Part shown: positions 4,217 through 28,261 of the stretch, piece after piece
Layout: the number at the start of each line of letters is the position of its first letter
Position numbering within the stretch: position 1 is the stretch's first letter
Origin: an uncultured delta proteobacterium
GTDB lineage: Bacteria > Desulfobacterota > RBG-13-43-22
Direction of reading: 5' to 3'
DNA: 64,000 bases
NCBI GenBank assembly: GCA_963711835.1
Contig: CAVQFQ010000012.1
Coordinates: forward strand, 64,001-128,000
Program-made: the position numbers and the translations under genes
Notes under the pieces: model-generated
The model's input: only the letters and a program-made list of their open reading frames with translations
Databases searched by the model: none
Told to the model about the DNA's origin: nothing

Positions 4217-4628
4217 AAGGATGAAGGATGAATTATGAAGCATTGGCCTTCGTCTTCTTTGAGATGGTGGTGAAGATGGCGAGGAGTTGATCGCATTCGT
4301 CGCGCAGGTCGGCGAGTCTCGCATTGGGAACAATCGACGACTCGGCCAGCAGCTCAAGCCAATAGGCGGTTTCGTCGAGTTCCTTGAGACAGTCACCGAT
4401 TTTGGCGATGAACTCCGGTTTCGACCTCGCCCGATTGGCCTCGCGGTAATTGGCTCCAACGGATGTGCCGGAACGTAGGACTTGTTTGCCCAACACCTGC
4501 GCTTCGGTTGACTTTGGCAATGCGGAATACATCCGAATCACCCGTAACGCAAATTCCTTCGTCCGAATCTGCAAATCCTTCGGCTCCTGCTTCTTTCCTT
4601 CATCATTCATAATTCATCCTTCATCCTT
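4217..4628. repeat. 23-bp perfect inverted repeat built of heptamers, flanking the four-helix-bundle gene
   Basis: AAGGATGAAGGATGAATTATGAA (4217-4239) / TTCATAATTCATCCTTCATCCTT (4606-4628). Confidence 0.9.
4233..4610 (-). CDS. Four helix bundle protein (23S rRNA IVS protein family)
   Basis: DL..RTKEFALRVI...QVLRSGTSVGANYREA.RARSK.EFIAKIG...KELDETAYWLELL signature. Confidence 0.92.
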   Translation of the reverse strand: MNDEGKKQEPKDLQIRTKEFALRVIRMYSALPKSTEAQVLGKQVLRSGTSVGANYREANRARSKPEFIAKIGDCLKELDETAYWLELLAESSIVPNARLADLRDECDQLLAIFTTISKKTKANAS

Positions 4629-4889: not shown

Positions 4890-6570
4890 CTAAGTGCCCA
4901 GCCAGTCTCCCATCCCTTTCCAGCCTTTGTCTTTATAGGTTTGATTTGGATTTGCCGGGATATCCTTTGGGAGAGGCGGTTTCCCCGGCAATTGCCCTTT
5001 GCAATATTTTCTCCACTCAGTTTGACTTTTTAAATTCAGGCTGTGAACGAAAGCACGGGCTTCTTTGAAAGGACGATATTCCTAAGCTGGGAGCAATGGT
5101 CCCTGTTCCCAACCAGTCACCCATCCCTTTCCAGCCTTTGTCTTTATAGGTTTGATTTGGATTTGCAGGGATATCCTTGGGTAGAGATGGTTTCCCTGGC
5201 AATTGCCCTTTGCAATATTTCCTCCACTCAGTTCCGCTTTTTAAATTCAGACTGTGAACCCAAGCACGGGCTTCTTTGAAGGGACGATATTCCTAAGAAT
5301 GGAAGCAACGGTCCCTGTCCCCAGCCAGTCCCCCAACCTTTCCAGCCTTTATCTTTATAGGTTGATTTGGATTTACCGGGATATCCATTGGGTAGAGGAG
5401 GTTTTCCCGGTAATTTTCCTTTGCAATATTTCCTCCACTCAGTTTGACTTTTTAAATTCAAGGCTATGAACGAAGGCACGGGCTTCTTTAAAAGGACGAT
5501 ATTCCCTAAGATTGGAAGCAATCGTCCCCGTCCCCAGCCAGTCCCCCATCCCTTTCCAGCCTTTATCTTTATAGGTTTGATTTGGATTTGCAGGGATATC
5601 CTTGGGTAGAGTTGGTTTCCCCGGTAATTGCCCTTTGCAATATTTCCTCCACTCAGTTCTACTTTTTAAATTCAGACTATGAACGAAAGCACGGGCTTCT
5701 TTAAAAGGACGATACTTCCTAAGCCTGGAAGCAATGGTCCCCGTCCCCAGCCAGTCGCCCCAACTTATCCAGCCTTTATCTTTATAGGTTTGATTTGGAT
5801 TTGCCGGGATATCAATAGGTAGAGGTGGTTTCCCCGGTAATTGCCCTTTGCAATATTTTCTCCACTCGCTCCACTTTTTAAATTTAGGCTATGAACGAAA
5901 GCTACGGGCTTCTTTGAAGGGACGATATTCCCTAAGCCTTGGAGCAATGGTCCCCGTCCCCAGCCAATCCCCCATCCCCTTCCAGCCTTTATCTTTATAG
6001 GTTTTATTCGGATTTGCTGGGATATCCATTGGGTAGAGGCGGTTTCCCCGGTAATTCGCCCTTTGCAATATTTCCTCCACTCAGCTTGACTTTTTAAATT
6101 CAGACTATGAACGAAGGCACGGGCCTCTTGAAAGGACGATATTTCCTAAGCTGAGGAGCAATAGTCCCCGTCCCCAGCCAGTCGCCCCAATCTCATCCAG
6201 CCTTTATCTTTATAGGTTTGATTTGGATTTGCCGGGATATCCATGGGTAGAGGAGGTTTCCCCGGTAGTTGCCCTTTGCAATATTTACTCCATTCGGTTT
6301 CACTTTTCAAATTCAGGCTATGAACGAAGGCTCGGGCTTCTTTGAAGGGACGATATTTCCTAAGACTGTGAGCAATGTTCCCTGTTCCCAGCCAGTCACC
6401 CCAACTCATCCAGCCTTTATCTTTATAAGTTTTATCAGGAGTTGCCGGGATATCCTTGGGTAGTGGTGGTTTCCCCGGTAATTGCCCTTTGCAATATTTT
6501 CTCCACTCAGTTTTACTTTTTAAATGAAGGCTATGAACGAAGGCACGGGCTTCTTCAAAAGGACGCCAGG
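4890..6570 (-). repeat. 8 coding tandem repeats of ~213 bp (71 aa), integrase-repeat-like
   Basis: Anchor CTTTATAG/AG at 4931, 5142, 5353, 5567, 5780, 5993, 6208 and 6421. Unit RPF.EARAFVHSLNLKSxxEWRKYCKG.LPGKPPLP.DIPANPNQTYKDKGW..WGDWLGTGTIAxxLR.Y. Confidence 0.95.
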
Positions 6571-8568
6571 AAAGCTTTGCCAGCCTTGACCATAACTTGA
6601 GTTCTATTGATTCGGCAAAAAGCTTGGCATCAATTTTCTGCCCTATGGGAATGTCAATTTCAATAGGGTATTCACCCCTACCAGGTCTTCGTCCCTTGAG
6701 AAATAGCCCTGAAGTATTCCACGATCCGGTCATCATTGGAAGCGAGTGCCCGGAGGGTCATCAAAAGATGGTCGTATGATTCACTCTTTAAAGAATCGGC
6801 ATCCGGCTGGTTGCCATCCTGGATTACAGGGATGATTACATACCCCAATTTCTTCGATTCGCTTTTCCGCAAGGCCCGTCCTACTGCCTGGACTATATCT
6901 ATGGTGCTTTTTCGGGGGTCGGCAAATAGGACGCAATCAATATCGGGGATGTCGACTCCTTCGGAAAGACATCGGGCATTTGTGATCAAGGCTCGCCTGG
7001 ATTGTTCAAAATCATCGATTAAACGGGAACGCTGGGCGGTGGGCATTTTTCCTGAAACATGGAAGGCTTCCAATTTTTTATATTCCGGGAAAAAGCGATT
7101 AAAAACCTCCTGGATCTCCTTGAAGGCCCTGGCCCTGGCTATGCTTGAATGGAAGGAAATGGCATGCCTTATGGACTGACTCTGAATGGCCTTTCTAAGG
7201 GCGATCACTGAGGCCAGCATCTCCGCTTCCACATCCTTGTCCCATTTTCCCTTGTCCGGCCTTACCAGAAGATTCTTTCTGACCAATTGGGCGATTTCAG
7301 ATCGAGTGACCAGTATAGTTATTATTTTGTAGTCGCTTAAGATGGGCGGGTCTGATTCCAGGGCTTCTTTGAAGGATAGCAGCTCAAAGGTGTCGCCATA
7401 AGTAACCGGGTCATCCATGCTGAGGATCTCGTCACTCTGGCCCCGGTACCTGCGTTCCGTGGCGGTCATGAACAGGCGTTTATTAATCCGGATATTCTCA
7501 TCATCAAGGAGATGACTGAAGAGAGTATCTCTCTTGCCCACCGTCTTGTGGGCTTCATCAAGGATTCCGAGGTCAAAGGCTGTTTTGGCCTTCCGGGAGG
7601 CTTCGGCTATGGCCCGACCACTCTGATAGGTGGCAAAAACAACCGTGGTTCCCTTTTTCCGGTCTTTGAGCCAATGGGCGATCTCATTAGAATCCGTATG
7701 GATTCGGATGCCGAGGTCCTGGGTAAACATGACCATATCATCCCGCTCGATATCTCCTACAGATTCGTCACTACATACACAGATCCAGTTTATTTCTTTT
7801 TTTTGAGCGAGCGATTCCCTTGTCCAGACAATAAGGGACTGCCTGATTAAGGCCAGGCTGGGGACTGCTATAAGAATGGTTTTGGCATCCAAGTCTCCCC
7901 GCAATCCAATAGCTGGTCAGGCTTTTGCCGGTTCCACAGGCCGAAATCAATTTGCCTCTGGACTGGTTATCATCTAAAAAATGACGGTGAGCATTCCGGA
8001 TGGCCCTTTCCTGGTGGGGAAATGGCTTGAAACGGTTTTAGGGGGATGGCTTTGCCTTTAGAGAAATTTGCTTGAGTCTGGAAAAGAAATCCTCATCCAA
8101 TCCCCGCCAAACATCTCCAGCACAAAAACTAAGCCTTTCTCCATATTTCTTTAACCGATGGCTAAATCTGTCTGCAGTGGTGCAGACCAAACCAAGGGAA
8201 ATGTTTTTGCAGATGACAAAAGCCAGCCCGGTGAAGGTATCAATATCTTTTCTGGAAAGGGATCGGGTCTCGTCTTCCCGATATTTGCATTGGATGGCCC
8301 AGTATTCTTTCTCCTTGGTTTCTGCAATAAGGTCTATCCCCTCATCCGGGCCAGGAAGGTTAAGGAAGGAACGGATTTGGAGGGGACTTCTTTTAGAAGC
8401 CAGACATTTTTTAGCTTGGTGGCGTAGGTGGGGTTGATTTGAAGGAAATACTTGGTCAGGATTTCAAATTGGTCGCCTTTGTCTTTTTCAGGAAGCTCAT
8501 TTAGGCTTTTTTTAAAATCCTGCCAGTTTTTGCTTTGATAAATGAGTCTGGTTCCCCCTGTTACTCAT
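4890..8568 (-). CDS. Mrr-like endonuclease + SF2 (ResIII/DEAH) helicase + C-terminal tandem repeats, frameshifted in this assembly
   Basis: KGDQFE...PDEGIDLIA...YWAIQCKY nuclease motif; CGTGKS Walker A, LDEAH, MTAT, LSEGVD and IVQAVGRALR helicase motifs; 8 repeats ending WLGT* at 4890. Confidence 0.8.
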
Positions 8569-8579
8569 ACTGTTTCCTT

Positions 8580-8737
8580 AGAAGTCGGGGCACGGCCATA
8601 ATAAAAGGATTCAATGACTCGATATCAGAAAAGTGGGATTCCAGAAAATAGGTTCCTACGCCTCATCCTTGGGATTCGTAAAAATAAAACCCTTCCTTCA
8701 AATCTTCACGCGCCGATTCTAGAATTCTAATTTTCAT
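8580..8737 (-). pseudogene. ParE/RelE-family toxin, truncated with nonsense codon
   Basis: MKIRILESAREDLKEGFYFYESQG*GVGTYFLES..SDIESL, overlapping the antitoxin stop (ATGA). Confidence 0.7.
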
Positions 8738-8946
8738 GAAATCGAATTCCGCAGATAATTCTTGGCATGATCCCAGTCTATAAACCTATCCTTCCCATCT
8801 TTCAGTCTCATCTCTCTTTCTTTTAAAACTTCCTCGTGCCAGGATGGTGAAGAGAAATCAGGAGCAGCACGGCATATGTCATCCCACAACATTTCCATGG
8901 CCTTAAGCTTTTTCATAGCGGTCATTTCCTGTAAATTGATTGTCAA
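8734..8946 (-). CDS. Addiction module antitoxin component
   Basis: KLKAMEMLWDDI...SPSWHEEVLKERE...FIDWD.AK signature, upstream of the ParE remnant. Confidence 0.8.
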   Translation of the reverse strand: MTINLQEMTAMKKLKAMEMLWDDICRAAPDFSSPSWHEEVLKEREMRLKDGKDRFIDWDHAKNYLRNSIS

Positions 8947-9031
8947 AGACTAATTCCTCTCTTTTTGATTCGTTTGATCTGGATCATGTTTCTTATGGAT
9001 TATGATTTTCAGTCTCATACTTTGCCTCCTG

Positions 9032-9316
9032 TTATGCCGCCTTTTTGAGAGTGATTTGCATACCGGCTCTCGTCGCCAGGGTGATAAGCATTTCAAGGCT
9101 GAATCGTTCCCATTTACCTCTGATCAAGTCTGAAACCCTGGATTGACTAACGCCGAGGATTTCCGCAGCCTTGGCCTGCGTTAGCCTCTTGGCTTTTATC
9201 AATTTTCGGAGATCGGCCATAAGATCGGCCCGCATCTGAAGAATTGCGGCTTCGTCCGGAGAATAACCGAGATCAATGAACACGTTCCCGGAAGAATTAA
9301 CAATGGTTTCACTCAT
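9032..9316 (-). CDS. XRE/HTH_37 antitoxin
   Basis: SSGNVFIDLG...LTQAKAAEILGVSQSRVSDL.RGK..RFSLEML. Confidence 0.88.
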   Translation of the reverse strand: MSETIVNSSGNVFIDLGYSPDEAAILQMRADLMADLRKLIKAKRLTQAKAAEILGVSQSRVSDLIRGKWERFSLEMLITLATRAGMQITLKKAA

Positions 9317-9372
9317 AAGTTACCTCCAATCTGTCTGTATCGTTGGCGAGCCAAATCGATATCTTCCTTCCT
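9313..9372 (-). pseudogene. C-terminal remnant of RelE-like toxin
   Basis: RKEDIDLARQRYRQIGGNL* overlapping the antitoxin ATG. Confidence 0.6.
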
Positions 9373-9450
9373 GGCGACTTTACCGTTCCCGTTAACCAAG
9401 CCTGATCTGTCGCCCTTTCGACGATCTCAGATAGCGAAGAGGAACAACGA

Positions 9451-9802
9451 TCACTGTCCTGCGCCATGTTGGGCTCCGGATTCATCTAAAGGAATCTGGT
9501 TAGTCGATATGGGTTTGATATTTCTGAGATCCTCTGTTTCAGATTCTTGTGCAAAATATAGATCCCATCTAAGTTGCAGATTCATCCAAAAATCGGCGGA
9601 GACACCAAAAAATTTGGACAAGTCTCAAAGCTGTACTGGGTGTTATTCCACGCCGACCGTTGATGATCTCGTTTATCCGCTGATAAGGCACATGGATGGC
9701 ATCAGCAAGTTCACGCTGAGTGAACCCCATTGGCTTTAGAAATTCTTCAAGAAGCATCTCTCCAGGATGGGTAGGTGCTCTATGTGTTGGTATGCGAATC
9801 AT
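9451..9802 (-). CDS. higA: HigA-family antitoxin (one frameshift), no higB upstream
   Basis: PTHPGEMLLEEFLKPMGFTQRELA...RINEIINGRRGITPSTALRL, continuing SKFFGVSADFWMNLQ in another frame. Confidence 0.82.
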
Positions 9803-9844
9803 AGCAAATTCTCCCTTATAAAACCGGTGATCCTATCTATCGCT

Positions 9845-10103
9845 TCAGCGATAAACGTCCTGGCGATGGCCGACCTTCACCACCCAGACGGTAAGCTCCT
9901 TGTCCTGAATTGAGTATACGATTCGGTACCGTCCTTGACGAATCCTATACCTTTCCTGCCCGGTCAGTTTTTCGCAACCCGCCGGCCTGCGGATCTTCGG
10001 CCAGCATTCGAATCCGCTGAAGAATTCTTTTCAGATCGCCCTTGGGTATTATGGCAAAATCCTTCTCAACGGATGCTCGGAAGTAGACCTTATATGCGGC
10101 CAT
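9845..10103 (-). CDS. relE: RelE/StbE toxin (one frameshift)
   Basis: MAAYKVYFRASVEKDF...CEKLTGQERYRIRQGRYRIVYSIQDKELTVWVVKVGHRQDVYR*. Confidence 0.82.
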
Positions 10104-10323
10104 CTTTTCTCAGTCGTTTGACCATCTCGTCATAACTGACCAGGGGCTCTCCAGCTCTCCCTTCAAACGCTTCAATATCCTCGGCGTCCTCCGCAATGGC
10201 TTCTCTTACTGCCTTATTGACAAGGTTTGATACCGATGTAGCTGTTTCAACTGCCTTTAAGCGCAGTGCTTTATGTAAATCCGGTTCCAGGTATATCGTA
10301 GCTCGTTTGGCTTGTCCTGCCAT
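10090..10323 (-). CDS. CopG/RHH antitoxin
   Basis: KRATIYLEPDLHKALRLKA...SVSNLVNKAV; overlaps relE. Confidence 0.85.
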   Translation of the reverse strand: MAGQAKRATIYLEPDLHKALRLKAVETATSVSNLVNKAVREAIAEDAEDIEAFEGRAGEPLVSYDEMVKRLRKDGRI

Positions 10324-10443
10324 ATTCGCACCTCCTGACGTAGTCAGGTAACTATAGCACTATAACGTTAAAACGTCAATGTCAACCGTTATTTTGAAGC
10401 GAACGGCGGAGCTAATCGGCGGCCTGAACCTGCAGGACCGATT

Positions 10444-10848
10444 TCAAGGCGTTATCAACCTGACACTCGGAAAGTAGGTTCGATATCGGGAAGTATCTCT
10501 TGTCAAAAGGTCCAACTGAAGGACCGCCGCTTGTGCTCCTATATAAAAATCGGGCAGCGGACTTCTTTTTGCTCCTCCCTCTTTTTTATATTGAAAGTAA
10601 GCCTTTCCAGCTAAGAACAAGGCCTCTTTGGGAATTTCCAACATCAGAAACCCGGCCTTGGCCATAGCGCCTTCCAAATCCTCAATGCGCACAAAACCAA
10701 TGGAGACTTCGGAATAGATTATGGCATTAATATACAAGATGGCCTGGTGACTAATTTTCTCCAATGCCGTTTCCGACCAATCTGCCCAGTCAGGATCATT
10801 TAAGAATACGTCCAGGATGATATTCGAATCAACCAGAACAGCCTTCAT
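10444..10848 (-). CDS. vapC: VapC PIN-domain toxin
   Basis: VLVDSNIILD...IIYSEVS...PLPDFYIGAQA...LLTRD. Confidence 0.92.
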   Translation of the reverse strand: MKAVLVDSNIILDVFLNDPDWADWSETALEKISHQAILYINAIIYSEVSIGFVRIEDLEGAMAKAGFLMLEIPKEALFLAGKAYFQYKKEGGAKRSPLPDFYIGAQAAVLQLDLLTRDTSRYRTYFPSVRLITP

Positions 10849-11072
10849 TTTTCCCCTCGGGTCAAAGCCATAATTTCATCGGTGGTCATCTTCACGGTTG
10901 CTATTCCCCTCACCCTTCTAAATTTATGGGGTTTACTATTCTCCCTCTTCCCCTTAACCAAATAGATACGGCCCTTTTCTTCAATAAAATCAACCTCAAC
11001 GGCAGGAGTTATCCCTAATTTTTCACGAATGGCCTGGGGAATGGTTACTTGTCCTTTTGTCGTAACGCGCAT
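10845..11072 (-). CDS. vapB: AbrB/MazE-type antitoxin
   Basis: MRVTTKGQVTIPQAIREKLGI. Confidence 0.9.
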   Translation of the reverse strand: MRVTTKGQVTIPQAIREKLGITPAVEVDFIEEKGRIYLVKGKRENSKPHKFRRVRGIATVKMTTDEIMALTRGEK

Positions 11073-18842: not shown

Positions 18843-19310
18843 TTAGGCAGGAAACGAGATTCTCCTACTCACCTTCCAACAGATTCGGAATAATAGCAGA
18901 AACTCTGGGGGACTTACTATTTTAAAAGGAAAGGGCCCCGTCATTTTTGAGAGATGCGAAAAGTCTTTTATATCGCCAGTAACCAGAAAATCCGCTTTTC
19001 CTTTAAGAGCCGAAACCAAGACTGGCACATCCTTATCTGCGGTGGCCCTAAGATATTTTATTTCTTCGATGCTTGGCAGAGGGATAATGGTCAGGTTTAG
19101 TTTAGGAAGCTTATCAAGAGGGATGCAGGCAGGCATCTTCTTATTCAGGTTCCGCTCGATTTCAAGGATATTATCATTGATGTTTAAACCTTTAAGAAAA
19201 GGTAGATCAAGGCTTAAAAGGTCGAGGAGGATCCTGGGTGCTCCCCTTGCAAAGGAGTCCTCGAGGATGACATTGGAATCGAGAAAAACCTTAACGATTT
19301 TTCCGGCCAT
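18843..19310 (-). CDS. PIN-domain toxin, possibly decayed
   Basis: VFLDSNVI...DKDVPVLVSAL.GKADFLVTGD.KDF. Confidence 0.75.
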   Translation of the reverse strand: MAGKIVKVFLDSNVILEDSFARGAPRILLDLLSLDLPFLKGLNINDNILEIERNLNKKMPACIPLDKLPKLNLTIIPLPSIEEIKYLRATADKDVPVLVSALKGKADFLVTGDIKDFSHLSKMTGPFPFKIVSPPEFLLLFRICWKVSRRISFPA

Positions 19311-21925: not shown

Positions 21926-22168
21926 TCTTGAAATCTCCTGGTAAGGCTTTCACAATGAAAACTTTCACCCAAACCCAAAACCCTCGAACTTCAAATAGAC
22001 TACTCGGACTCCCAGCTTCCTTTTTATGAGGATCAGGATTTCGGAAATTCCTCTGATCACTCGACCGGTTAAAGGAAATTCGGGAGGCAACGGGAGTAGT
22101 TTGGCCAAATTGTGGAAGTCTGCCCCATTTTTTCCTCTTATCCCTCCCTATTTGTAAAAACTACCTCG

Positions 22169-22415
22169 TGGAAATGGGGACGCTGATAAAAAAGTAAATT
22201 ACCATAGGGGAGCATTTGATGTGTTTACCATATATACCGAATGAGTTTATTACTTATTGATTCCTGTGAAGTAACCCTGGTTTTTGAAATAATGATGATT
22301 CTCACAATAATTTTTTGTAGTATTTACCGGATATTGAAAACAGCATACTTTATTATTTTACTTCAAATTGGGTTACTTCTCAGGAATCACTTATTTACCA
22401 GCGTCCCCATTTCCA
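22169..22415. mobile_element. 247-bp miniature element with 22-bp TIR
   Basis: TGGAAATGGGGACGCTGATAAA / TTTACCAGCGTCCCCATTTCCA (1 mismatch), AT-rich interior. Confidence 0.65.
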
Positions 22416-22446
22416 TTAACCTCGATATTTAAAAGCCATGAGAAAG

Positions 22447-23706
22447 TCAGTTTAGATCATGTGTTGTCTTAATCGGTTGTATCTTTAATACTTCTTCGGC
22501 TATTATTGAAAGTACCTCCGCTCGTAGCTCATCGATTGAAATAGAATTTTGACCTGAGCATCGTTGTCTCATGTCATCGTTTGCTACAAATTTCGCTGGA
22601 CTAACCCCACCAAACACGTTTTGAATTCTTTCATTTTCACAACGGCGATACTCGCCTCCAACCTTTCCTCGGATTAACTTATCAAATATTGTATTATTTT
22701 CTTTTACTGCCATCACTACATACCCATACTCAATAAATGTTCCACCCGAGATGACTTCATAGAGATATGTTGAATTTCTCGGCATAAGTAGAATCGCACC
22801 AACGAAATTTACTTGTCCTACTGAATAAGAAATAGTTTGTGATCTTTCGGGTATCGTTTTTTCATCATGGCGCACTCTCTCAATTATCAACGCAATTGAT
22901 TTTTCTTTAGGGACATTAACCCATTCAACTCCCCTGATTTTGCTACGGAAAATTTGGAGCAAATCTTCATATAAAAGGCGATCCCCCCCTTTTAAATATA
23001 AAAATACGTGTGTAGTCAATTCATCTTTTCGTTTATTAGCAAATTCAGGGAAGACCGTCCCAATTAGCCCGATTTCATTGCTTCGAATGTTAATTGTTGG
23101 TAAAAGGGACTCTATTCTCTTTCCCTCCTCCGAATCTGGTCCGACTTTTTTAACATATTCGACTAAAGCTCTTATCGGTCTACTTCCTGAACCATTGCTC
23201 TGAAAATCTCTGATTGACCGATTAACTATGATCTGCTGGTGTTGAGGGGTATCGAGGGATGGGAAGAGGCCTATATCATCGCCTAAAATGAAATGAATTG
23301 TCCCTTTAATGTTGCCCTCGGTGACCACTTTTTCCAGTTTTTCATAAAGACTACTAACTTCAGCTGGTTGGAATAAGTTGGCGGAATCTAAAAATAATAA
23401 TCTCCTATAGGCAGTGACAGCGTGATTGGGAGCCGATATTTTGTCAATCAATTTTTCAAAATTTGCGAGGTAATAATATCGAATCGCTGGATAGCTGTGG
23501 AATAGCTCCCTCACTTTAGGAATGGCCGTTGGACGAGCCAGAGCTTTATCGATATGTTGTACCCCATTAATATTTTCGTTTTTAGAGAAAGCTACTCGCG
23601 CCTCATCAATATGATAAGTAGCTTGGTCTTCGTTTGTCCGTGGATAGGTAGCACATCCCAAAAAAAAGATAGTTACGCTTATTGTGACTATAATGCTTAA
23701 TTTCAT
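22447..23706 (-). CDS. Hypothetical lipoprotein (low GC)
   Basis: 419-aa ORF, signal peptide with lipobox FLGC. Confidence 0.75.
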   Translation of the reverse strand: MKLSIIVTISVTIFFLGCATYPRTNEDQATYHIDEARVAFSKNENINGVQHIDKALARPTAIPKVRELFHSYPAIRYYYLANFEKLIDKISAPNHAVTAYRRLLFLDSANLFQPAEVSSLYEKLEKVVTEGNIKGTIHFILGDDIGLFPSLDTPQHQQIIVNRSIRDFQSNGSGSRPIRALVEYVKKVGPDSEEGKRIESLLPTINIRSNEIGLIGTVFPEFANKRKDELTTHVFLYLKGGDRLLYEDLLQIFRSKIRGVEWVNVPKEKSIALIIERVRHDEKTIPERSQTISYSVGQVNFVGAILLMPRNSTYLYEVISGGTFIEYGYVVMAVKENNTIFDKLIRGKVGGEYRRCENERIQNVFGGVSPAKFVANDDMRQRCSGQNSISIDELRAEVLSIIAEEVLKIQPIKTTHDLN

Positions 23707-23835
23707 TTTCCTATTCTTTCTTTACGTCTCTTGAGTACACTAAAGATCAGAATTGCGAACCTGTTACCTTTTCTCCCTCACGAAGACTTGACTCTTTGAT
23801 TGTATTAACTTTAGGATCTGTTCTCTTTAAGTATT

Positions 23836-24597
23836 TTATTTAATAATTTTATAAATTCCCCCAGATTTGCTAATATTAACACGGTGCTCTCTCTGTAGAT
23901 GGTGAATGTGAGTTTCGATTCTTCTGGCGGTTGTAATTAAATCCCTAGTTGAAAACCCTTTTTCTATCAGTATGGAAGCCATTTTTCTTATTGAGGCTCC
24001 TTTTTCTAATAATCTATCTATCATCCCCCCTTGTTTTTCAAAACTATGATTATATTCACTGCGCTCAAAGCCATTAGATTTAGGCAACACATTATAGGAT
24101 TTATTTTTCTTCATTGGTTGGACAGTAAGAGTATTTGTCTTATTAGACCCTACAACCATAGGGGCATCCATTCGTTTAATTTGATGAGCAGTAAACGGTT
24201 CAATATCTTCGGGAGTAAAACATTTAAGCAGCTCTTCATCATTTTTATCCTTAAGGAAATTGATTAGATTCGAAATCGTTAATTCTTTCCATTCTATTCC
24301 ATGATGGTCCAATGCACGTCGTAAATTAAATGGGACTTTATTATTAACCAACATTACTCTGATTGTTGGATCATCTGCAGTAAGCAATAATCCCTCATAA
24401 TCCAAAATTTGACCTATGTGATCCCTTTTTATAATTCCCAATTTTAATTCGACAATGAGTTTATTTTTATGTCTGTCTTCAAATAAGACATCAACATACT
24501 TACCTTTTAGATTAACTTGCCTTCCGCTTAATAATAACCCACCTTCTATCAATTCAGGATATTTAACCAGGATATTTTCAAATTCATGTTCTTTCAT
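23836..24597 (-). CDS. NucS/DUF91-like PD-(D/E)XK endonuclease domain protein
   Basis: E.EFE..L..YPELIE.GL....RQ...VDVLFED...IVELK...IGQILDY; low GC. Confidence 0.78.
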   Translation of the reverse strand: MKEHEFENILVKYPELIEGGLLLSGRQVNLKGKYVDVLFEDRHKNKLIVELKLGIIKRDHIGQILDYEGLLLTADDPTIRVMLVNNKVPFNLRRALDHHGIEWKELTISNLINFLKDKNDEELLKCFTPEDIEPFTAHQIKRMDAPMVVGSNKTNTLTVQPMKKNKSYNVLPKSNGFERSEYNHSFEKQGGMIDRLLEKGASIRKMASILIEKGFSTRDLITTARRIETHIHHLQREHRVNISKSGGIYKIIK

Positions 24598-24659
24598 AGT
24601 TACCCCTTGTTAATGTCTGATTATAAATACCGTAGACAGGCCGTATTCGCTGAGTGAAC

Positions 24660-24872
24660 TTATTTTTCTTGGGAATGATTAAGGTGGTCATAAATGGAAT
24701 CCCCTGTATCGTAGGATTCAAAAAACTTTTTTTTCGATGCCTCTCGCCACATGGAATCCTCGTCACCCTCATCAATAATAGATATTTGAATGCGCTTTCC
24801 CGGTTCAGCGGAAATGGGTTGACTCAGTTCCAGATGGGTCAAATCCACTATTTTTGCTGAAATAATTTCCAT
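24660..24872 (-). CDS. Small putative antitoxin; cognate toxin apparently lost
   Basis: GGAGG SD then MEIISAKIVD..HLEL...W......FFESYD..DSIYD; overlapping MTT... start that decays. Confidence 0.5.
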   Translation of the reverse strand: MEIISAKIVDLTHLELSQPISAEPGKRIQISIIDEGDEDSMWREASKKKFFESYDTGDSIYDHLNHSQEK

Positions 24873-24997
24873 TTCTCCTCCTTTTAAGCCCTTCCAGTCT
24901 TCTTCTACTACCGGGGAAACAATGTCCCCCATAAAGGTGACGGTGTTTTTTGAGGAAGGTTTGCGGTCGGTTTTAGAATTGTCTTGGAAATCGTTAT

Positions 24998-25408
24998 TCA
25001 TCGTCCACGAACCCCTTCAATGTAGCGATCCGTACTGGAGGGTTTCTTTAAAATCCCCGAGACCGCATCCACCGGATGTTCCTTCTTACTCCCCTTCTGA
25101 ATTATTTGAATATTTTCAAAAACCTTTTCATCAATCTGGCTCAATTCCCAGTTGTTCTGCAAGTTAAGCCAAAACCGGGGGCTTCCTCCCAAAGCCTTCG
25201 ATAGCTTCCTCGCCATTTCAGCGCTTATCCCTCTTTTTCCACGAATTATTTCATTAATAGTTTTTGGCAGCACGCCAATATGTTTCGCCAGAGCCGATTG
25301 GGTAAGACCAATTTCCTCAAGTTCATCCCGGAGTACTTCCCCGGGATGAACAGGGGTATAATGATTGATATCCTGTGTGCCTTTATTTTTAAAGGTTTTT
25401 ATGGCCAT
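24998..25408 (-). CDS. higA: HigA antitoxin chimera (HigB N-terminus + HigA + VapB-like tail)
   Basis: MAIKTFKNKGTQDI fused to PVHPGEVLRDEL...FWLNLQ, tail HPVDAVSGILK...TDRYIEGVRGR. Confidence 0.75.
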   Translation of the reverse strand: MAIKTFKNKGTQDINHYTPVHPGEVLRDELEEIGLTQSALAKHIGVLPKTINEIIRGKRGISAEMARKLSKALGGSPRFWLNLQNNWELSQIDEKVFENIQIIQKGSKKEHPVDAVSGILKKPSSTDRYIEGVRGR

Positions 25409-25436
25409 TTTTTGTCTTAAAGAAATTCTGTCTAAC

Positions 25437-25455
25437 TATACCACATTCCGGTATA
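25437..25455. promoter_or_regulatory. Putative higBA promoter/operator
   Basis: TATACC-N7-GGTATA palindrome overlapping a minus-strand TATAGT -10. Confidence 0.5.
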
Positions 25456-25504
25456 ATATCGAAAAAAATTCAAGTGGTCCCAACCTGTTCTGAACAGGCC
25501 AAGA

Positions 25505-28261
25505 CTAATTCCCGGGTGAAACCTGAGGGGCATGGATCTCAACTTTTTCCACTGACCACCAGTAGACCGGATCGGACTGAGTCAAGGTCAAGCGCAGGAA
25601 TCGTGTCTTAATGGCCGGCTGACACCGGTATCGCATCCAGGAACCTCGGCTCGAAAGTAGAAGCTGGCCGCTGAAAACAAGGGGTTCCGTTTGATCCAAC
25701 GATACCGGATCCCAATTCCTGCCATCCTGAGAGAATTCGGCTCTCAAACCCCGAGGATAGTCATCAGCGTAATAGGGGTTGTGAAGCGTTATCCACTCGA
25801 CAGGTTGGCTTCGGCCACCATCCAAAATCAGGCTTAAACCGGGTCGCTGGGGAGTTCCTGTACTCCACCGTTTGCCCTTGATATAACCATGCACTAATCC
25901 TGCCGCTTCTTTTGGGTTGGACTCCGAATAGGAGGCGGCCAAGGGTAGGCTACCCTTCATCTGCCTACCCTGTAGAATAAAAAGTGTGTAACGACCCAGA
26001 TCCATTGATCGGGAGCGGATGCCCGAACGGCCCAAGCGCAAAGCCACTTCGGAGGTTTCCCGCTTGGCGATCAGCAAGCCGTTCCCAACCCCGGGATCCA
26101 GCAAGGGGAGGGTGTGAGGGAGGACAAGACCAACCTCATCATTATATTCATTGGCTAATAAAACCGCAGGCTGCAGTCCCACTCGACTTCTAATAACAGC
26201 CGAGGGCCAGGCATCGGCATAGACCCTTCTAAGGGGAAGCGTTGAAAACACCCTGACCAGTTGGTCGGCTGTTTGAGACCAGGTAGGAAGTCTCATCCGT
26301 TGGCCGGGGCCAAAGACCAAACATTCTCTGGTGCTCAGGTCTAAATGGTCCTGACCCAGGTTCGTCAGGCGAAGATAGCGCAGGGTTTGCGGTTTGAAAT
26401 AACATTCCACCCTGGGGTAGCGGATTTTAAGAAAGGGATGAGGTCCGGAGAAATAAAAAGGCCCCCAATACCCATTCGTTTCCCTGATGATTTTGAAATT
26501 TAAATCGGACCCGGCCCCCTCCAAACGTAAGCCGGCCGGCATTTTTCTGAAATCTTCAACAATCAAGGCCAGGCCGCTTACGGCTTCCTCTCGTCCAAAA
26601 TCCAGGAGAAAGCCGTTCCCCTCGGCCTCTTTTTCGCCGACGGTAAACCCGGTGGTAAAATCGCCATCATGAAGAGACCGGCCCAGGTCCTCCCCCTGTA
26701 AAGAGTAAAACTTCCACTGGTCTCTTTCTAAAAGACGTTCGGCACCTTGAGGTTCAGCAAAGGAATGAAAAATTCTATTTTGCCAGAGCCGATAAGACAG
26801 ACCCAATAAATGGGCACTTTTTCCAATCTCTTCCATAAAACCCGGGTTTATCGCAGCATCGACCAGGACCGAAGAAGAGACTTGTTCTTCTGCCCAGGGA
26901 TGGGAAATGATGGGCTTCCCGGCGGCCAGGAAGGCCATCTGAAGATCGTCACCATAGAGGTATTCAAAACCTTCTTTCCTGATGGTCTCCAATTGCTCCT
27001 TCATTTTTCCTTCCCGCTGGAGATAAAAACCCTGGCGGACATCCAGCAGGCTTCCCCCAACACCCCAATTAATCCTGAAAGTGCTATAGCCGTGAATAGC
27101 CGTGCCGACTACCAATAAGGCCAGAAGGAGCGTTGGCCAAGGGGCTTTCCATCTTACCGTTCCCCAGAATCCCCAGCACCAGGGAAGAATCAGAATTAGA
27201 GGAAGCAAATAGCGTTGGTCAAAGGAACCTATACTCTGCCAGTTCCCCCCAATAAGGAGCGCGCTGCAATTGACCAGCACCAGCACCGGGGGGAGCAGAT
27301 TCGTCCGGATTGGAGAGCGAAGACCGGATAGGGTCAATCGGACCAGAGAAACCAAAAAAAGACTTAGCCAACCGAGGCTGGTTAAAAATTTCAAGGAGTT
27401 GATGGAGAGGCCGTCGATACCGGCCAATGAGTGAATCCCAAAAAGTCCGGGAAGGGCAATAAAGAAAAAGTTGTTTAGACGTTTACCGATAAAAAGTACT
27501 TCCTGGGCGGTTTCTATATTCCACCAAGGCCAGCCGTAATAAAGGCAAAAATAGATGAGCGGACTGGCTCCGACCAGGAGTCCAAGAATCAGCCAAGGGA
27601 AGGAGGGTCTCCAAAAATAAAACCGGAGCATCAGTAATAAAAAAAACCCGCAAGTCCCGATGACAATGGCTGTAAGAAAATTGGTCCAAAAGGCGCATCC
27701 TGAAAGAAGACCCCAAATGAAAAAAACCTTTGAATCGGGTTTGTTCCTTTCCAGCACTGTAACAGTCAGGAGAAGTATAAGGGCAGAAAGGAAGAGAGCC
27801 AGGGGATAATGGGTCCGGGCCTCCCCGACCCAATACAAGGCAAAGGCTGGAGGAAAGGCCAGACAGGCTATTCCTATCATCAAACCCCAAGACTGGAGTT
27901 GTTTTTTCAATATCCAATACAAGACCAGCATGGTCCCCAGGGAAAGCAGAAAAGGCAAAAAATTAACAGCCAGAGAAGAAGCACCGGTCCAGGCATAGAT
28001 GGGTGCGGCCAGATAAGCATCCAGGGTACCCATAAACTTCTGACCGTAAAAAAAAAGGGGGAAGTTGCCTTTTAGGACATCCAATCCCAACAGTCCGCAG
28101 GTGGCTGCATCCCGATCCATAACCGCGGAGGCATATCTCCATAAACGCAGAACCACCGCCGTGGAAAAAAGAAGAATAACCAAGCCGCTCCTCCAGGCTG
28201 ATTTTTTCACCGAATTCGTTTGAAAGTCGCCCCTTTCAGAGAAGGCCATTTTTTCTCTCAT
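25505..28261 (-). CDS. GT-C (PMT/ArnT-like) membrane glycosyltransferase with discoidin (F5/8C) domains
   Basis: DAA..GL...P.FFYGQ.FMG.L, multiple TM helices, RWSTGTPQ...DYPRGL..EFS.DG..W discoidin motifs. Confidence 0.75.
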   Translation of the reverse strand: MREKMAFSERGDFQTNSVKKSAWRSGLVILLFSTAVVLRLWRYASAVMDRDAATCGLLGLDVLKGNFPLFFYGQKFMGTLDAYLAAPIYAWTGASSLAVNFLPFLLSLGTMLVLYWILKKQLQSWGLMIGIACLAFPPAFALYWVGEARTHYPLALFLSALILLLTVTVLERNKPDSKVFFIWGLLSGCAFWTNFLTAIVIGTCGFFLLLMLRFYFWRPSFPWLILGLLVGASPLIYFCLYYGWPWWNIETAQEVLFIGKRLNNFFFIALPGLFGIHSLAGIDGLSINSLKFLTSLGWLSLFLVSLVRLTLSGLRSPIRTNLLPPVLVLVNCSALLIGGNWQSIGSFDQRYLLPLILILPWCWGFWGTVRWKAPWPTLLLALLVVGTAIHGYSTFRINWGVGGSLLDVRQGFYLQREGKMKEQLETIRKEGFEYLYGDDLQMAFLAAGKPIISHPWAEEQVSSSVLVDAAINPGFMEEIGKSAHLLGLSYRLWQNRIFHSFAEPQGAERLLERDQWKFYSLQGEDLGRSLHDGDFTTGFTVGEKEAEGNGFLLDFGREEAVSGLALIVEDFRKMPAGLRLEGAGSDLNFKIIRETNGYWGPFYFSGPHPFLKIRYPRVECYFKPQTLRYLRLTNLGQDHLDLSTRECLVFGPGQRMRLPTWSQTADQLVRVFSTLPLRRVYADAWPSAVIRSRVGLQPAVLLANEYNDEVGLVLPHTLPLLDPGVGNGLLIAKRETSEVALRLGRSGIRSRSMDLGRYTLFILQGRQMKGSLPLAASYSESNPKEAAGLVHGYIKGKRWSTGTPQRPGLSLILDGGRSQPVEWITLHNPYYADDYPRGLRAEFSQDGRNWDPVSLDQTEPLVFSGQLLLSSRGSWMRYRCQPAIKTRFLRLTLTQSDPVYWWSVEKVEIHAPQVSPGN

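Follow-up and report, generated by a model that had tools for sequence, protein, structure and literature searches.

How can an enzyme that appears built to cut DNA spare its host while carrying no methylase, and what might a fast-changing array of repeats contribute to it? The questions are raised by a gene in a 64,000-nucleotide stretch from an uncultured delta proteobacterium (positions 64,001 to 128,000 of contig CAVQFQ010000012.1), called the window below. The gene lies on the minus strand, from an ATG at 8568-8566 to a TAG at 4892-4890, exactly the interval 4890..8568 of the original prediction, which had been made from the letters alone. From its N-terminus, the product has an Mrr nuclease, a superfamily 2 (SF2) motor, a coupler, and then eight 71-residue units resembling the Pfam repeat INT_rpt. 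The answer we favor, to which sequence comparison gives somewhat less than an even chance, is that this is a mobile, stand-alone nuclease-motor of the Type ISP kind, aimed by an exchangeable DNA-reading array, with a role in defense and with the host spared by absence of the site.

A Type ISP-like motor with an array in place of the methylase

An Mrr-family PD-(D/E)xK nuclease domain with the signature D-x3-D...Q-x-K occupies 8070..8568 on the minus strand, as placed by a Pfam Mrr_cat_2 match (E 6.5e-14, at 8158-8364) and by read-through against a homolog. Its reading frame is broken near 8380 and probably also near the start codon (X in the read-through). The SF2 ATPase/translocase, with motifs GTGKS, DEAH, TAT, and QAVGRALR, follows on the same strand at 6850..8030; Pfam ResIII and Helicase_C match within 6678-7904, and the read-through places breaks near 8057, 8029, and 7884. 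A coupler-like linker at 6570..6850 (minus strand, broken near 6683-6695) runs up to the cassette-exchange junction between ELKxWxRL and AKLSWRPFEEAR. The remainder, 4890..6570 on the minus strand, consists of eight 213-bp (71-residue) INT_rpt-like units with about 13 single-base indels, the last unit ending in GDWLGT and a stop codon. Tandem-repeat analysis delimits the array at 4897-6565 (period 213, 7.8 copies, 87% matches), and eight GDWLG-type units can be counted. Pfam detected no DNA methyltransferase domain in the gene or among the window open reading frames (ORFs) scanned. Pfam and tandem-repeat analysis therefore confirm the layout first described, an Mrr-like nuclease and an SF2 helicase followed by eight 71-residue units and no methyltransferase. 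NCBIfam gave no family above cut-off.

Over about 600 residues, the nuclease, SF2 ATPase, and coupler share homology with those of the Type ISP restriction enzymes LlaBIII and LlaGI (PDB 4xqk and 5ffj). Homolog P0002 aligns to residues 29-649 of LlaBIII 4xqk (E 3.8e-58), and the top Foldseek match to the core fold is Type ISP (E 8.5e-34). The match to LlaBIII ends at residue 649 of 1578, before the methylase, and the PADLOC model match at 643 of 1646. Type ISP homology ends where the array begins, so the array stands in place of the methylase and target reader. The family shares with Type ISP an N-terminal Mrr nuclease with D..D..QxK and intact SF2 motifs followed by a coupler; it differs in having an array of 4-14 units where Type ISP has an N6-adenine methyltransferase together with a TRD (target recognition domain) in the same polypeptide, and no methylation-based self mark is evident. 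Judged by these homologies, it is a variant of the Type ISP motor and not a member of Type ISP. No description of the architecture was found in the literature searched, whose coverage leaves out most subscription journals.

The family is widespread. A helicase search found 4,582 proteins of 715-2,040 residues among 7,999 scored, and the repeat profile matched at least 3,907 among 7,999 scored. Units number 1-14 in 117 of the 120 best homologs and 4-14 in 58 of 62 complete genes encoding more than 800 residues. Among 80 genome loci, the groups represented are Verrucomicrobiota, Planctomycetota, Lentisphaerae, Desulfobacterota, Nitrospinota, Campylobacterota, Bacteroidota, and other groups. All 83 aligned sequences that cover this part have nuclease residues D73, D77, Q91, and K93; the ATPase motifs are kept in 81-84 of 84 aligned sequences. 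A 1,384-residue frame (L082; G043:C5), 39-45% identical to the enzyme half, has no repeat match. DUF4238 is fused behind the array in P0051 and lies adjacent in L027:4583-5500.

Exchange of arrays between near-identical cores

Three pairs of cores, 98.7-98.8% identical, carry arrays that differ in length and whose best-matching units share 0.65 identity in the scaffold and 0.13 at variable sites. Sister units within one protein give 0.65 and 0.18, the same level as between the arrays of near-identical cores. Among pairs of cores at least 93% identical, the arrays differ in 15 of 17 and are shared in two. Core identity collapses within a few residues of RLAKLSWRPFEEAR at the array junction. At this same junction, P0073, P0079, P0088, and L044 are joined to a different family of repeats, 74 residues long; over 474 residues P0073 and P0115 have cores 98.5% identical, yet P0073 carries the 74-residue repeats. 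The 71- and 74-residue units are unrelated by profile comparison (probability 0.3). L138, a more distant homolog, has HA repeats instead, which neither unit convincingly matches. Exchange is also seen inside arrays. Those of L025 and L055 have units 1, 2, 5, and 6 almost exactly in common while units 3-4 are replaced, a difference that is, on its alignment, an internal block swap. The repeat exchange first suspected is thus seen as swaps of whole cassettes and of internal blocks between near-identical cores. LlaBIII and LlaGI are more than 95% alike in their first three domains and read different sites, according to passages of two reports (PMC7049714, PMC3553950); exchange of the specificity part on a near-identical core is common to Type ISP and this family.

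The 74-residue family (also L044:10742-13522) occurs in 6-8 copies, is uncatalogued, and has no Pfam match; its best ESM Atlas score is 0.84, to an unnamed entry. It has variable positions of its own, for example 37, 40, 41, 44, 45, 47, and 69-71.

Flanking DNA is seldom common even to cores more than 88% identical, so the gene itself also moves. Where one flank is in common, the arrays still differ: L015 and L055 have a downstream flank 93% identical over 757 bp, and L030 and L039 an upstream flank 91% identical over 613 bp. Homing endonucleases recognize long sites without a methylase, and a selfish homing element, in which the array would read the empty insertion site and the nuclease would promote its own spread, would share that property. 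It would fit the rarity of matching flanks between close cores, and also a large-phage locus (L147:2679-9196) where six consecutive repeat-protein genes mix the unit with DUF723/DUF4379 zinc modules. The two pairs with one flank in common and different arrays argue against it, as does the translocating motor, which in Type ISP is reported to cut far from its site. We consider homing very improbable.

The units of the window are mosaic (61 of 120 site pairs incompatible), and dependence of their recombination on distance was not significant (p 0.17). Mutagenesis by a diversity-generating retroelement was considered and received no support: the scanned neighbors include one reverse transcriptase, of group II intron type (L002), and changes involving A make up 65% at variable sites versus 60% in the scaffold.

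Variable sites in the repeat unit

The original prediction was of a fixed scaffold with fast-changing sites, and window units bear this out, with pN 0.042 versus pS 0.324 (nonsynonymous and synonymous differences) in the scaffold and pN/pS of 1.6, 1.3, and 1.8 at positions 19, 67, and 68. These values are more than chance, where neutral diversity of the variable columns had been held up as an alternative. Of the two hypervariable residue pairs proposed, that in the motif IAxxLR (67/68) stands, while the KSxxEW pair is reduced to a single hypervariable residue in the window, position 19, which reads K, E, Q, G, R, Q, G, Q by unit. Position 20 is T in six of seven readable units, and the "GA" of unit 4 reflects a deletion in that codon, which is unreadable. 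A supposed third, toggling site (W-[MI]SW or W-KGM, position 56) evolves at a rate no higher than that of the other surface positions, and its residues covary with position 19 (z 16). Nor are there only two variable sites: data from the family add position 23 and a patch at 43/45/46, missed earlier because it is nearly uniform in the window.

Over 301 units, the ratio of within-protein to between-protein diversity is 0.90-1.01 at positions 19, 20, 23, 42, 43, 45, 46, 67, and 68, while surface positions such as 9, 15, 24, 33, and 49 are homogenized within a protein (0.52-0.72). Covariation in 721 units groups the positions as 18-20/23/56, 42-47, and 64-69, three modules within which z reaches 18; among the top 30 pairs, z between modules is at most 4.4. 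Between adjacent units covariation is weak (maximum z 4.2 over 324 tests). By these measures the unit has three variable patches, at positions 19/20/23, 43/45/46, and 67/68.

When four sites taken from the window were evaluated on other loci, pN/pS was 1.46, 1.17, and 1.26 at three divergence thresholds, with intervals of 0.64-2.35 (4 loci), 0.91-1.44 (11 loci), and 1.11-1.42 (16 loci). Other surface sites gave 0.53-0.67, and position 23 exceeded 1 at all thresholds. In orthologous arrays, chosen on columns other than the variable sites, identity is 0.79 at variable sites versus 0.73 at other surface sites (four of four pairs). In sister units matched on their scaffolds it is 0.40 versus 0.65 (98 pairs, 40 proteins). 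Sites conserved between orthologs and divergent between paralogs present, in this small sample, the pattern of specificity-determining residues. Variable sites are also rich in N/Q/R/H (40% versus 20%) and poor in D/E (7% versus 20%). Arginine at surface sites tracks host GC content (rho 0.48, p 0.008) and arginine at variable sites does not (rho -0.04), over 30 loci that are not independent.

These data bear on the proposal that the array is a non-specific grip on DNA, with variable positions that are surface residues free of constraint and shuffled by recombination. A pN/pS near 1 at the variable sites, with two of three intervals including 1, agrees with it, as does the mosaic structure of the window units. 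It is harder to reconcile with orthologous arrays, where conservation at the variable sites equals or exceeds that at other surface sites, or with the strong covariation within patches, the biased composition, and the independence from host GC. We give it little credence.

The unit is related to the phage-integrase repeat INT_rpt (PF14882), as first noted, although the match in the gene (E 1.3e-4) is under the Pfam cut-off. The likeness is a weak profile similarity to the SxxEW...IP..P...Y...W core; the INT_rpt model has 55 positions, versus a unit of 71 or 66 residues here with an extra GDWLGTG-xIAxxLR segment. Against a curated cut-off of 26.5 bits, the window piece scores 22.6, P0001 21.6, and P0013 24.2; P0002 has no match, and P0006 reaches 53.7 bits summed over its repeats. 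INT_rpt is found in 29-50% of members of the nearest ESM Atlas clusters. PF14882 is listed in a modeling table in one report (PMC8078820), and no function for the repeat was found in the literature searched.

Structure models of the unit

A three-unit AlphaFold2 model has a predicted local distance difference test score (pLDDT) of 89 and a predicted template modeling score (pTM) of 0.50. Because the units are confidently modeled and the geometry between them is uncertain, the model suggests zinc-finger-like beads on a string, well folded and with uncertain relative placement, rather than a solenoid. In the models a helix at 4-14 and a turn precede a helix at 19-26 that carries variable positions 19, 20, and 23, and each variable patch lies at a helix start. 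For the recognition-like helix first suggested, a helix-turn-helix (HTH) fold was not confirmed (Foldseek E >2; VIA best Z 2.4). A missing match in the PDB neither proves a new fold nor excludes HTH for the modeled unit. A viral structure library returned one unnamed 309-residue protein (E 1.7e-7) and weak matches to giant-virus SF2 helicases.

Repeats of transcription activator-like effectors (TALEs) are helical-hairpin units of 33-35 residues, each with one repeat-variable diresidue pair, that form a superhelix. TALE/STAR and C2H2 zinc-finger arrays offer an analogy in their conserved scaffold, few variable residues, and variable number of units. They show no sequence or fold match; here three patches occur per 71-residue unit in loosely linked modeled domains. 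The label TALE-like therefore had to be given up, as the 71-residue unit has three weakly coupled patches and its model is bead-like (pTM 0.50).

Integrity of the window copy

The window copy is broken by about 19 frame changes. Read-through against homolog P0002 locates five of these, each of a single base, in the enzyme half (8380, 8057, 8029, 7884, and 6683), a sixth is likely near the start codon, and about 13 more lie in the array. Read through, the enzyme half has no stop codons and retains every catalytic motif. A relative 86.7% identical over 2,218 bases (L130) has a single open frame across the five enzyme-half breaks, and contigs from sequencing run X1 (about 90-96% identity) show gaps against the window at 6691, 7895, 8033-8066, and 8378, the same places as the breaks. 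Where other copies have AAG or ATG, units 3 and 6 both read AATG, which has the look of a merged consensus. Among the sequencing runs listed as matches, none contains half of the sequence words searched and none is of RNA. Because a relative 87% identical is open at the five breaks that can be checked, the 19 or so breaks are probably assembly errors, and the gene in the window, most likely intact, lies in a poorly polished, repeat-bearing segment.

Decay of the array, raised at the outset as an alternative, was rejected as the chief explanation. The enzyme half has no nonsense substitutions, 12 of 253 conserved columns deviate in the window copy (one of them an X at a break) against a median of 5 and a 90th percentile of 12 in intact homologs, and scaffold pN/pS among the window units is 0.13; the open frame of L130 and the gaps in the X1 contigs likewise make simple decay improbable. 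Exact residues of the window array are partly unreliable owing to its indels; the family-level evidence is independent of this copy. Among other family members, an IS21-type element splits one between motor and array (L048:9965-16200), and L006, L016, L040, and L057 are also split or frameshifted.

Self-protection and the search for a methylase

To our knowledge, a restriction enzyme reading unmodified DNA depends on a methylase to protect its own genome. Pfam found no DNA methyltransferase in the 286 ORFs scanned of 347 within 3 kb of family loci (61 were unscanned), and a methylase motif scan, which had no sensitivity control, found none among 896 neighboring ORFs. The repeat profile matches solely this gene in 34 of 35 genomes searched, mostly drafts, so no cognate repeat-guided methylase was found. 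On both counts (286 of 347 neighbors, 34 of 35 draft genomes) the family agrees with Type IV enzymes in lacking a cognate methyltransferase. The remaining genome, from Lentisphaerae, has four stand-alone arrays of about 590-850 residues beside the enzyme gene (L126-L129; G070), which could be spare cassettes or regulators. No conserved partner gene emerged, as no neighbor family among the 896 ORFs occurs in more than 6 of 80 loci, the largest being Fic (6 loci).

The chief rival to our reading is a Type IV-like enzyme, which avoids the problem of self-cutting. Units would read modified bases in a short context, the array would be a set of alternatives, and DNA bearing foreign methylation or phage hypermodification would be cut, which also removes the problem of site rarity. 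SauUSI has this layout according to one report (PMC7913695), being a methylase-free nuclease with an SF2 translocase and a C-terminal reader. The present family is alike in layout and differs in nuclease family, and in having a hypervariable array rather than one methylcytosine-reading TRD. The nuclease of SauUSI is a PLD, and its reader an SRA. Invariant aromatics in the unit (W22, Y48, W53, and W59) would suit a reader of modified bases, although they may be merely the unit core, and the cassette swaps fit equally well. The unit is found as well on GmtZ, a site-specific integrase, and in fusions with methyltransferases, where an unmodified target is likelier, and searches for SRA, EVE, or PUA-like folds gave no match, a result that excludes nothing. 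On balance we regard a Type IV-like role as rather unlikely.

Other proteins carrying the unit

Arrays of the unit lie N-terminal on fusions of SNF2/ResIII helicase with Methyltransf_8, in P0166 and P0193 from metagenomes and in viral L142, L149, and L151 from large phages; stand-alone arrays also occur in large phages. The unit matches the N-terminal part of the VPA1269/GmtZ protein in a gmtY-gmtZ-gmtX locus (tblastn E 2e-11). Passages of a preprint on GMT islands describe site-specific insertion for which gmtZ is required, and do not discuss the repeat (10.1101/2023.03.28.534373). In large Vibrio IncC plasmids, a 215-residue protein with about three units is encoded directly downstream of a Tus-like terminus-binding gene (L153:2988-4576). 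These integrase, helicase-methylase, and Tus-neighbor contexts point to DNA as the ligand of the unit. Distant domain partners of the repeat are under-sampled here. In viral L144:1394-7466, L145:2778-6428, and L146:3228-6214, the repeat gene is followed by a similar-looking protein of 212-230 residues without Pfam match; the repeat-bearing gene has a helicase in L144 and L145.

The array could instead sense phage proteins or DNA mimics and release a non-specific nuclease-motor in abortive infection. Hypervariable surface patches and cassette exchange are also typical of protein-recognition repeats, hydrophobic or aromatic residues make up 15.5% at variable sites, and defense-associated genes occur among the neighbors. 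Set against this, units are basic (12.3 K+R versus 7.2 D+E per unit), the enzyme partners seen are all methyltransferases or act on DNA, and the array sits at the DNA-target-reading position of Type ISP. Such a sensor is improbable.

Proposed mechanism

DNA binding by the units is suggested by their basic composition, by N/Q/R/H-rich patches at helix N-termini, and by the integrase and helicase-methylase partners, and readings in which the array targets DNA are, taken together, probable. In the mechanism we favor, an exchangeable array aiming a Type ISP-type nuclease-motor, the array would bind its target, each 71-residue unit reading DNA sequence. Binding would activate the motor by way of the coupler, a route proposed for LlaBIII, and ATP-driven translocation followed by cutting of invading DNA would proceed as in Type ISP, for which passages of two reports describe cleavage by translocation and collision at two head-to-head sites (PMC7049714, PMC3553950). 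The host would be spared because its genome would lack the long composite site; a site of at least 12 bp is expected 0.48 times per 4-Mb host and 0.006 times per random 50-kb phage. Reading of sequence would imply narrow, selected specificities spread over a population, in keeping with the extreme allelic diversity; the role would be a defensive one.

Several observations weigh against this reading. The close core pairs have members in common, and their sources are metagenome assemblies, which may be chimeric; chimeric assembly could make particular pairings, yet near-identical cores with different arrays would still be required. A site of the length considered would be rare in phages, so each array would protect against particular invaders only. 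The four-site pN/pS interval excludes 1 at just one of the three thresholds, and choosing pairs by low pS inflates all such ratios, so that what can safely be kept is the twofold contrast, with positive selection no more than suggested; the orthologous array pairs number only four. The three-unit model has no match to a known DNA-binding fold in the PDB by the Foldseek and VIA searches above. Finally, the frame damage is local, since 60 other genes of the same genome (about 27,200 residues) show just 5 frame changes, an indel density far below that of the window gene; a recent break of this copy by real indels is nevertheless unlikely.

A broader form of the proposal, which we put forward tentatively as possible, is that of widespread methylase-free restriction enzymes with plug-in cassettes (at least three repeat families), whose units read a few bases each through three independently shuffled patches. 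If this is true, populations would hold a library of specificities built by recombination, a protein-encoded immunity that is adaptive-like, and the unit would join TALEs and zinc fingers as a new programmable scaffold for binding DNA. An invariant nuclease site, the failure to find a methylase, and a putative targeting array that is the fastest-changing part imply one of two novelties, a rule for telling self from non-self or a modular reader of modified DNA. If binding is shown, the repeats would amount to a new modular code for reading DNA; thousands of natural arrays offer ready training data for working out such a code.

Genomic context

The source genome has 3.9 Mb in 28 contigs and is 89% complete. 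The repeat was found nowhere else in it; a PF14882 search of this genome gave no match and was uninformative, the controls being silent too. A search of 20 genomes from the same family found the gene in none of them and gave weak helicase-motif matches only. Promoter and terminator matches in the window are at chance level, and no tRNA was found in it.

Across the family, neighbors within 3 kb include PIN and Fic toxins, phage integrases, and insertion sequences, with scattered defense-type genes (TIR, SIR2 with caspase, SduA, HNH-WYL, AlbA, and AAA with S8 peptidase). In the window, Pfam identifies upstream of the gene, at 8734..11072 on the minus strand, a toxin-antitoxin/HTH cluster with Unstab_antitox, HTH_37, HTH_3, RHH, PIN, and MazE-like genes, which neighbor clustering shows not to be conserved with the gene. 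Downstream, at 4233..4610 on the minus strand, lies a four-helix-bundle gene of the 23S_rRNA_IVP family (Pfam), reported as context only. A further PIN gene is found at 18843-19310. The region 22000-26000, of low GC content (38-42%), has three ORFs without Pfam match and an HTH_3 gene and is probably another acquired segment.

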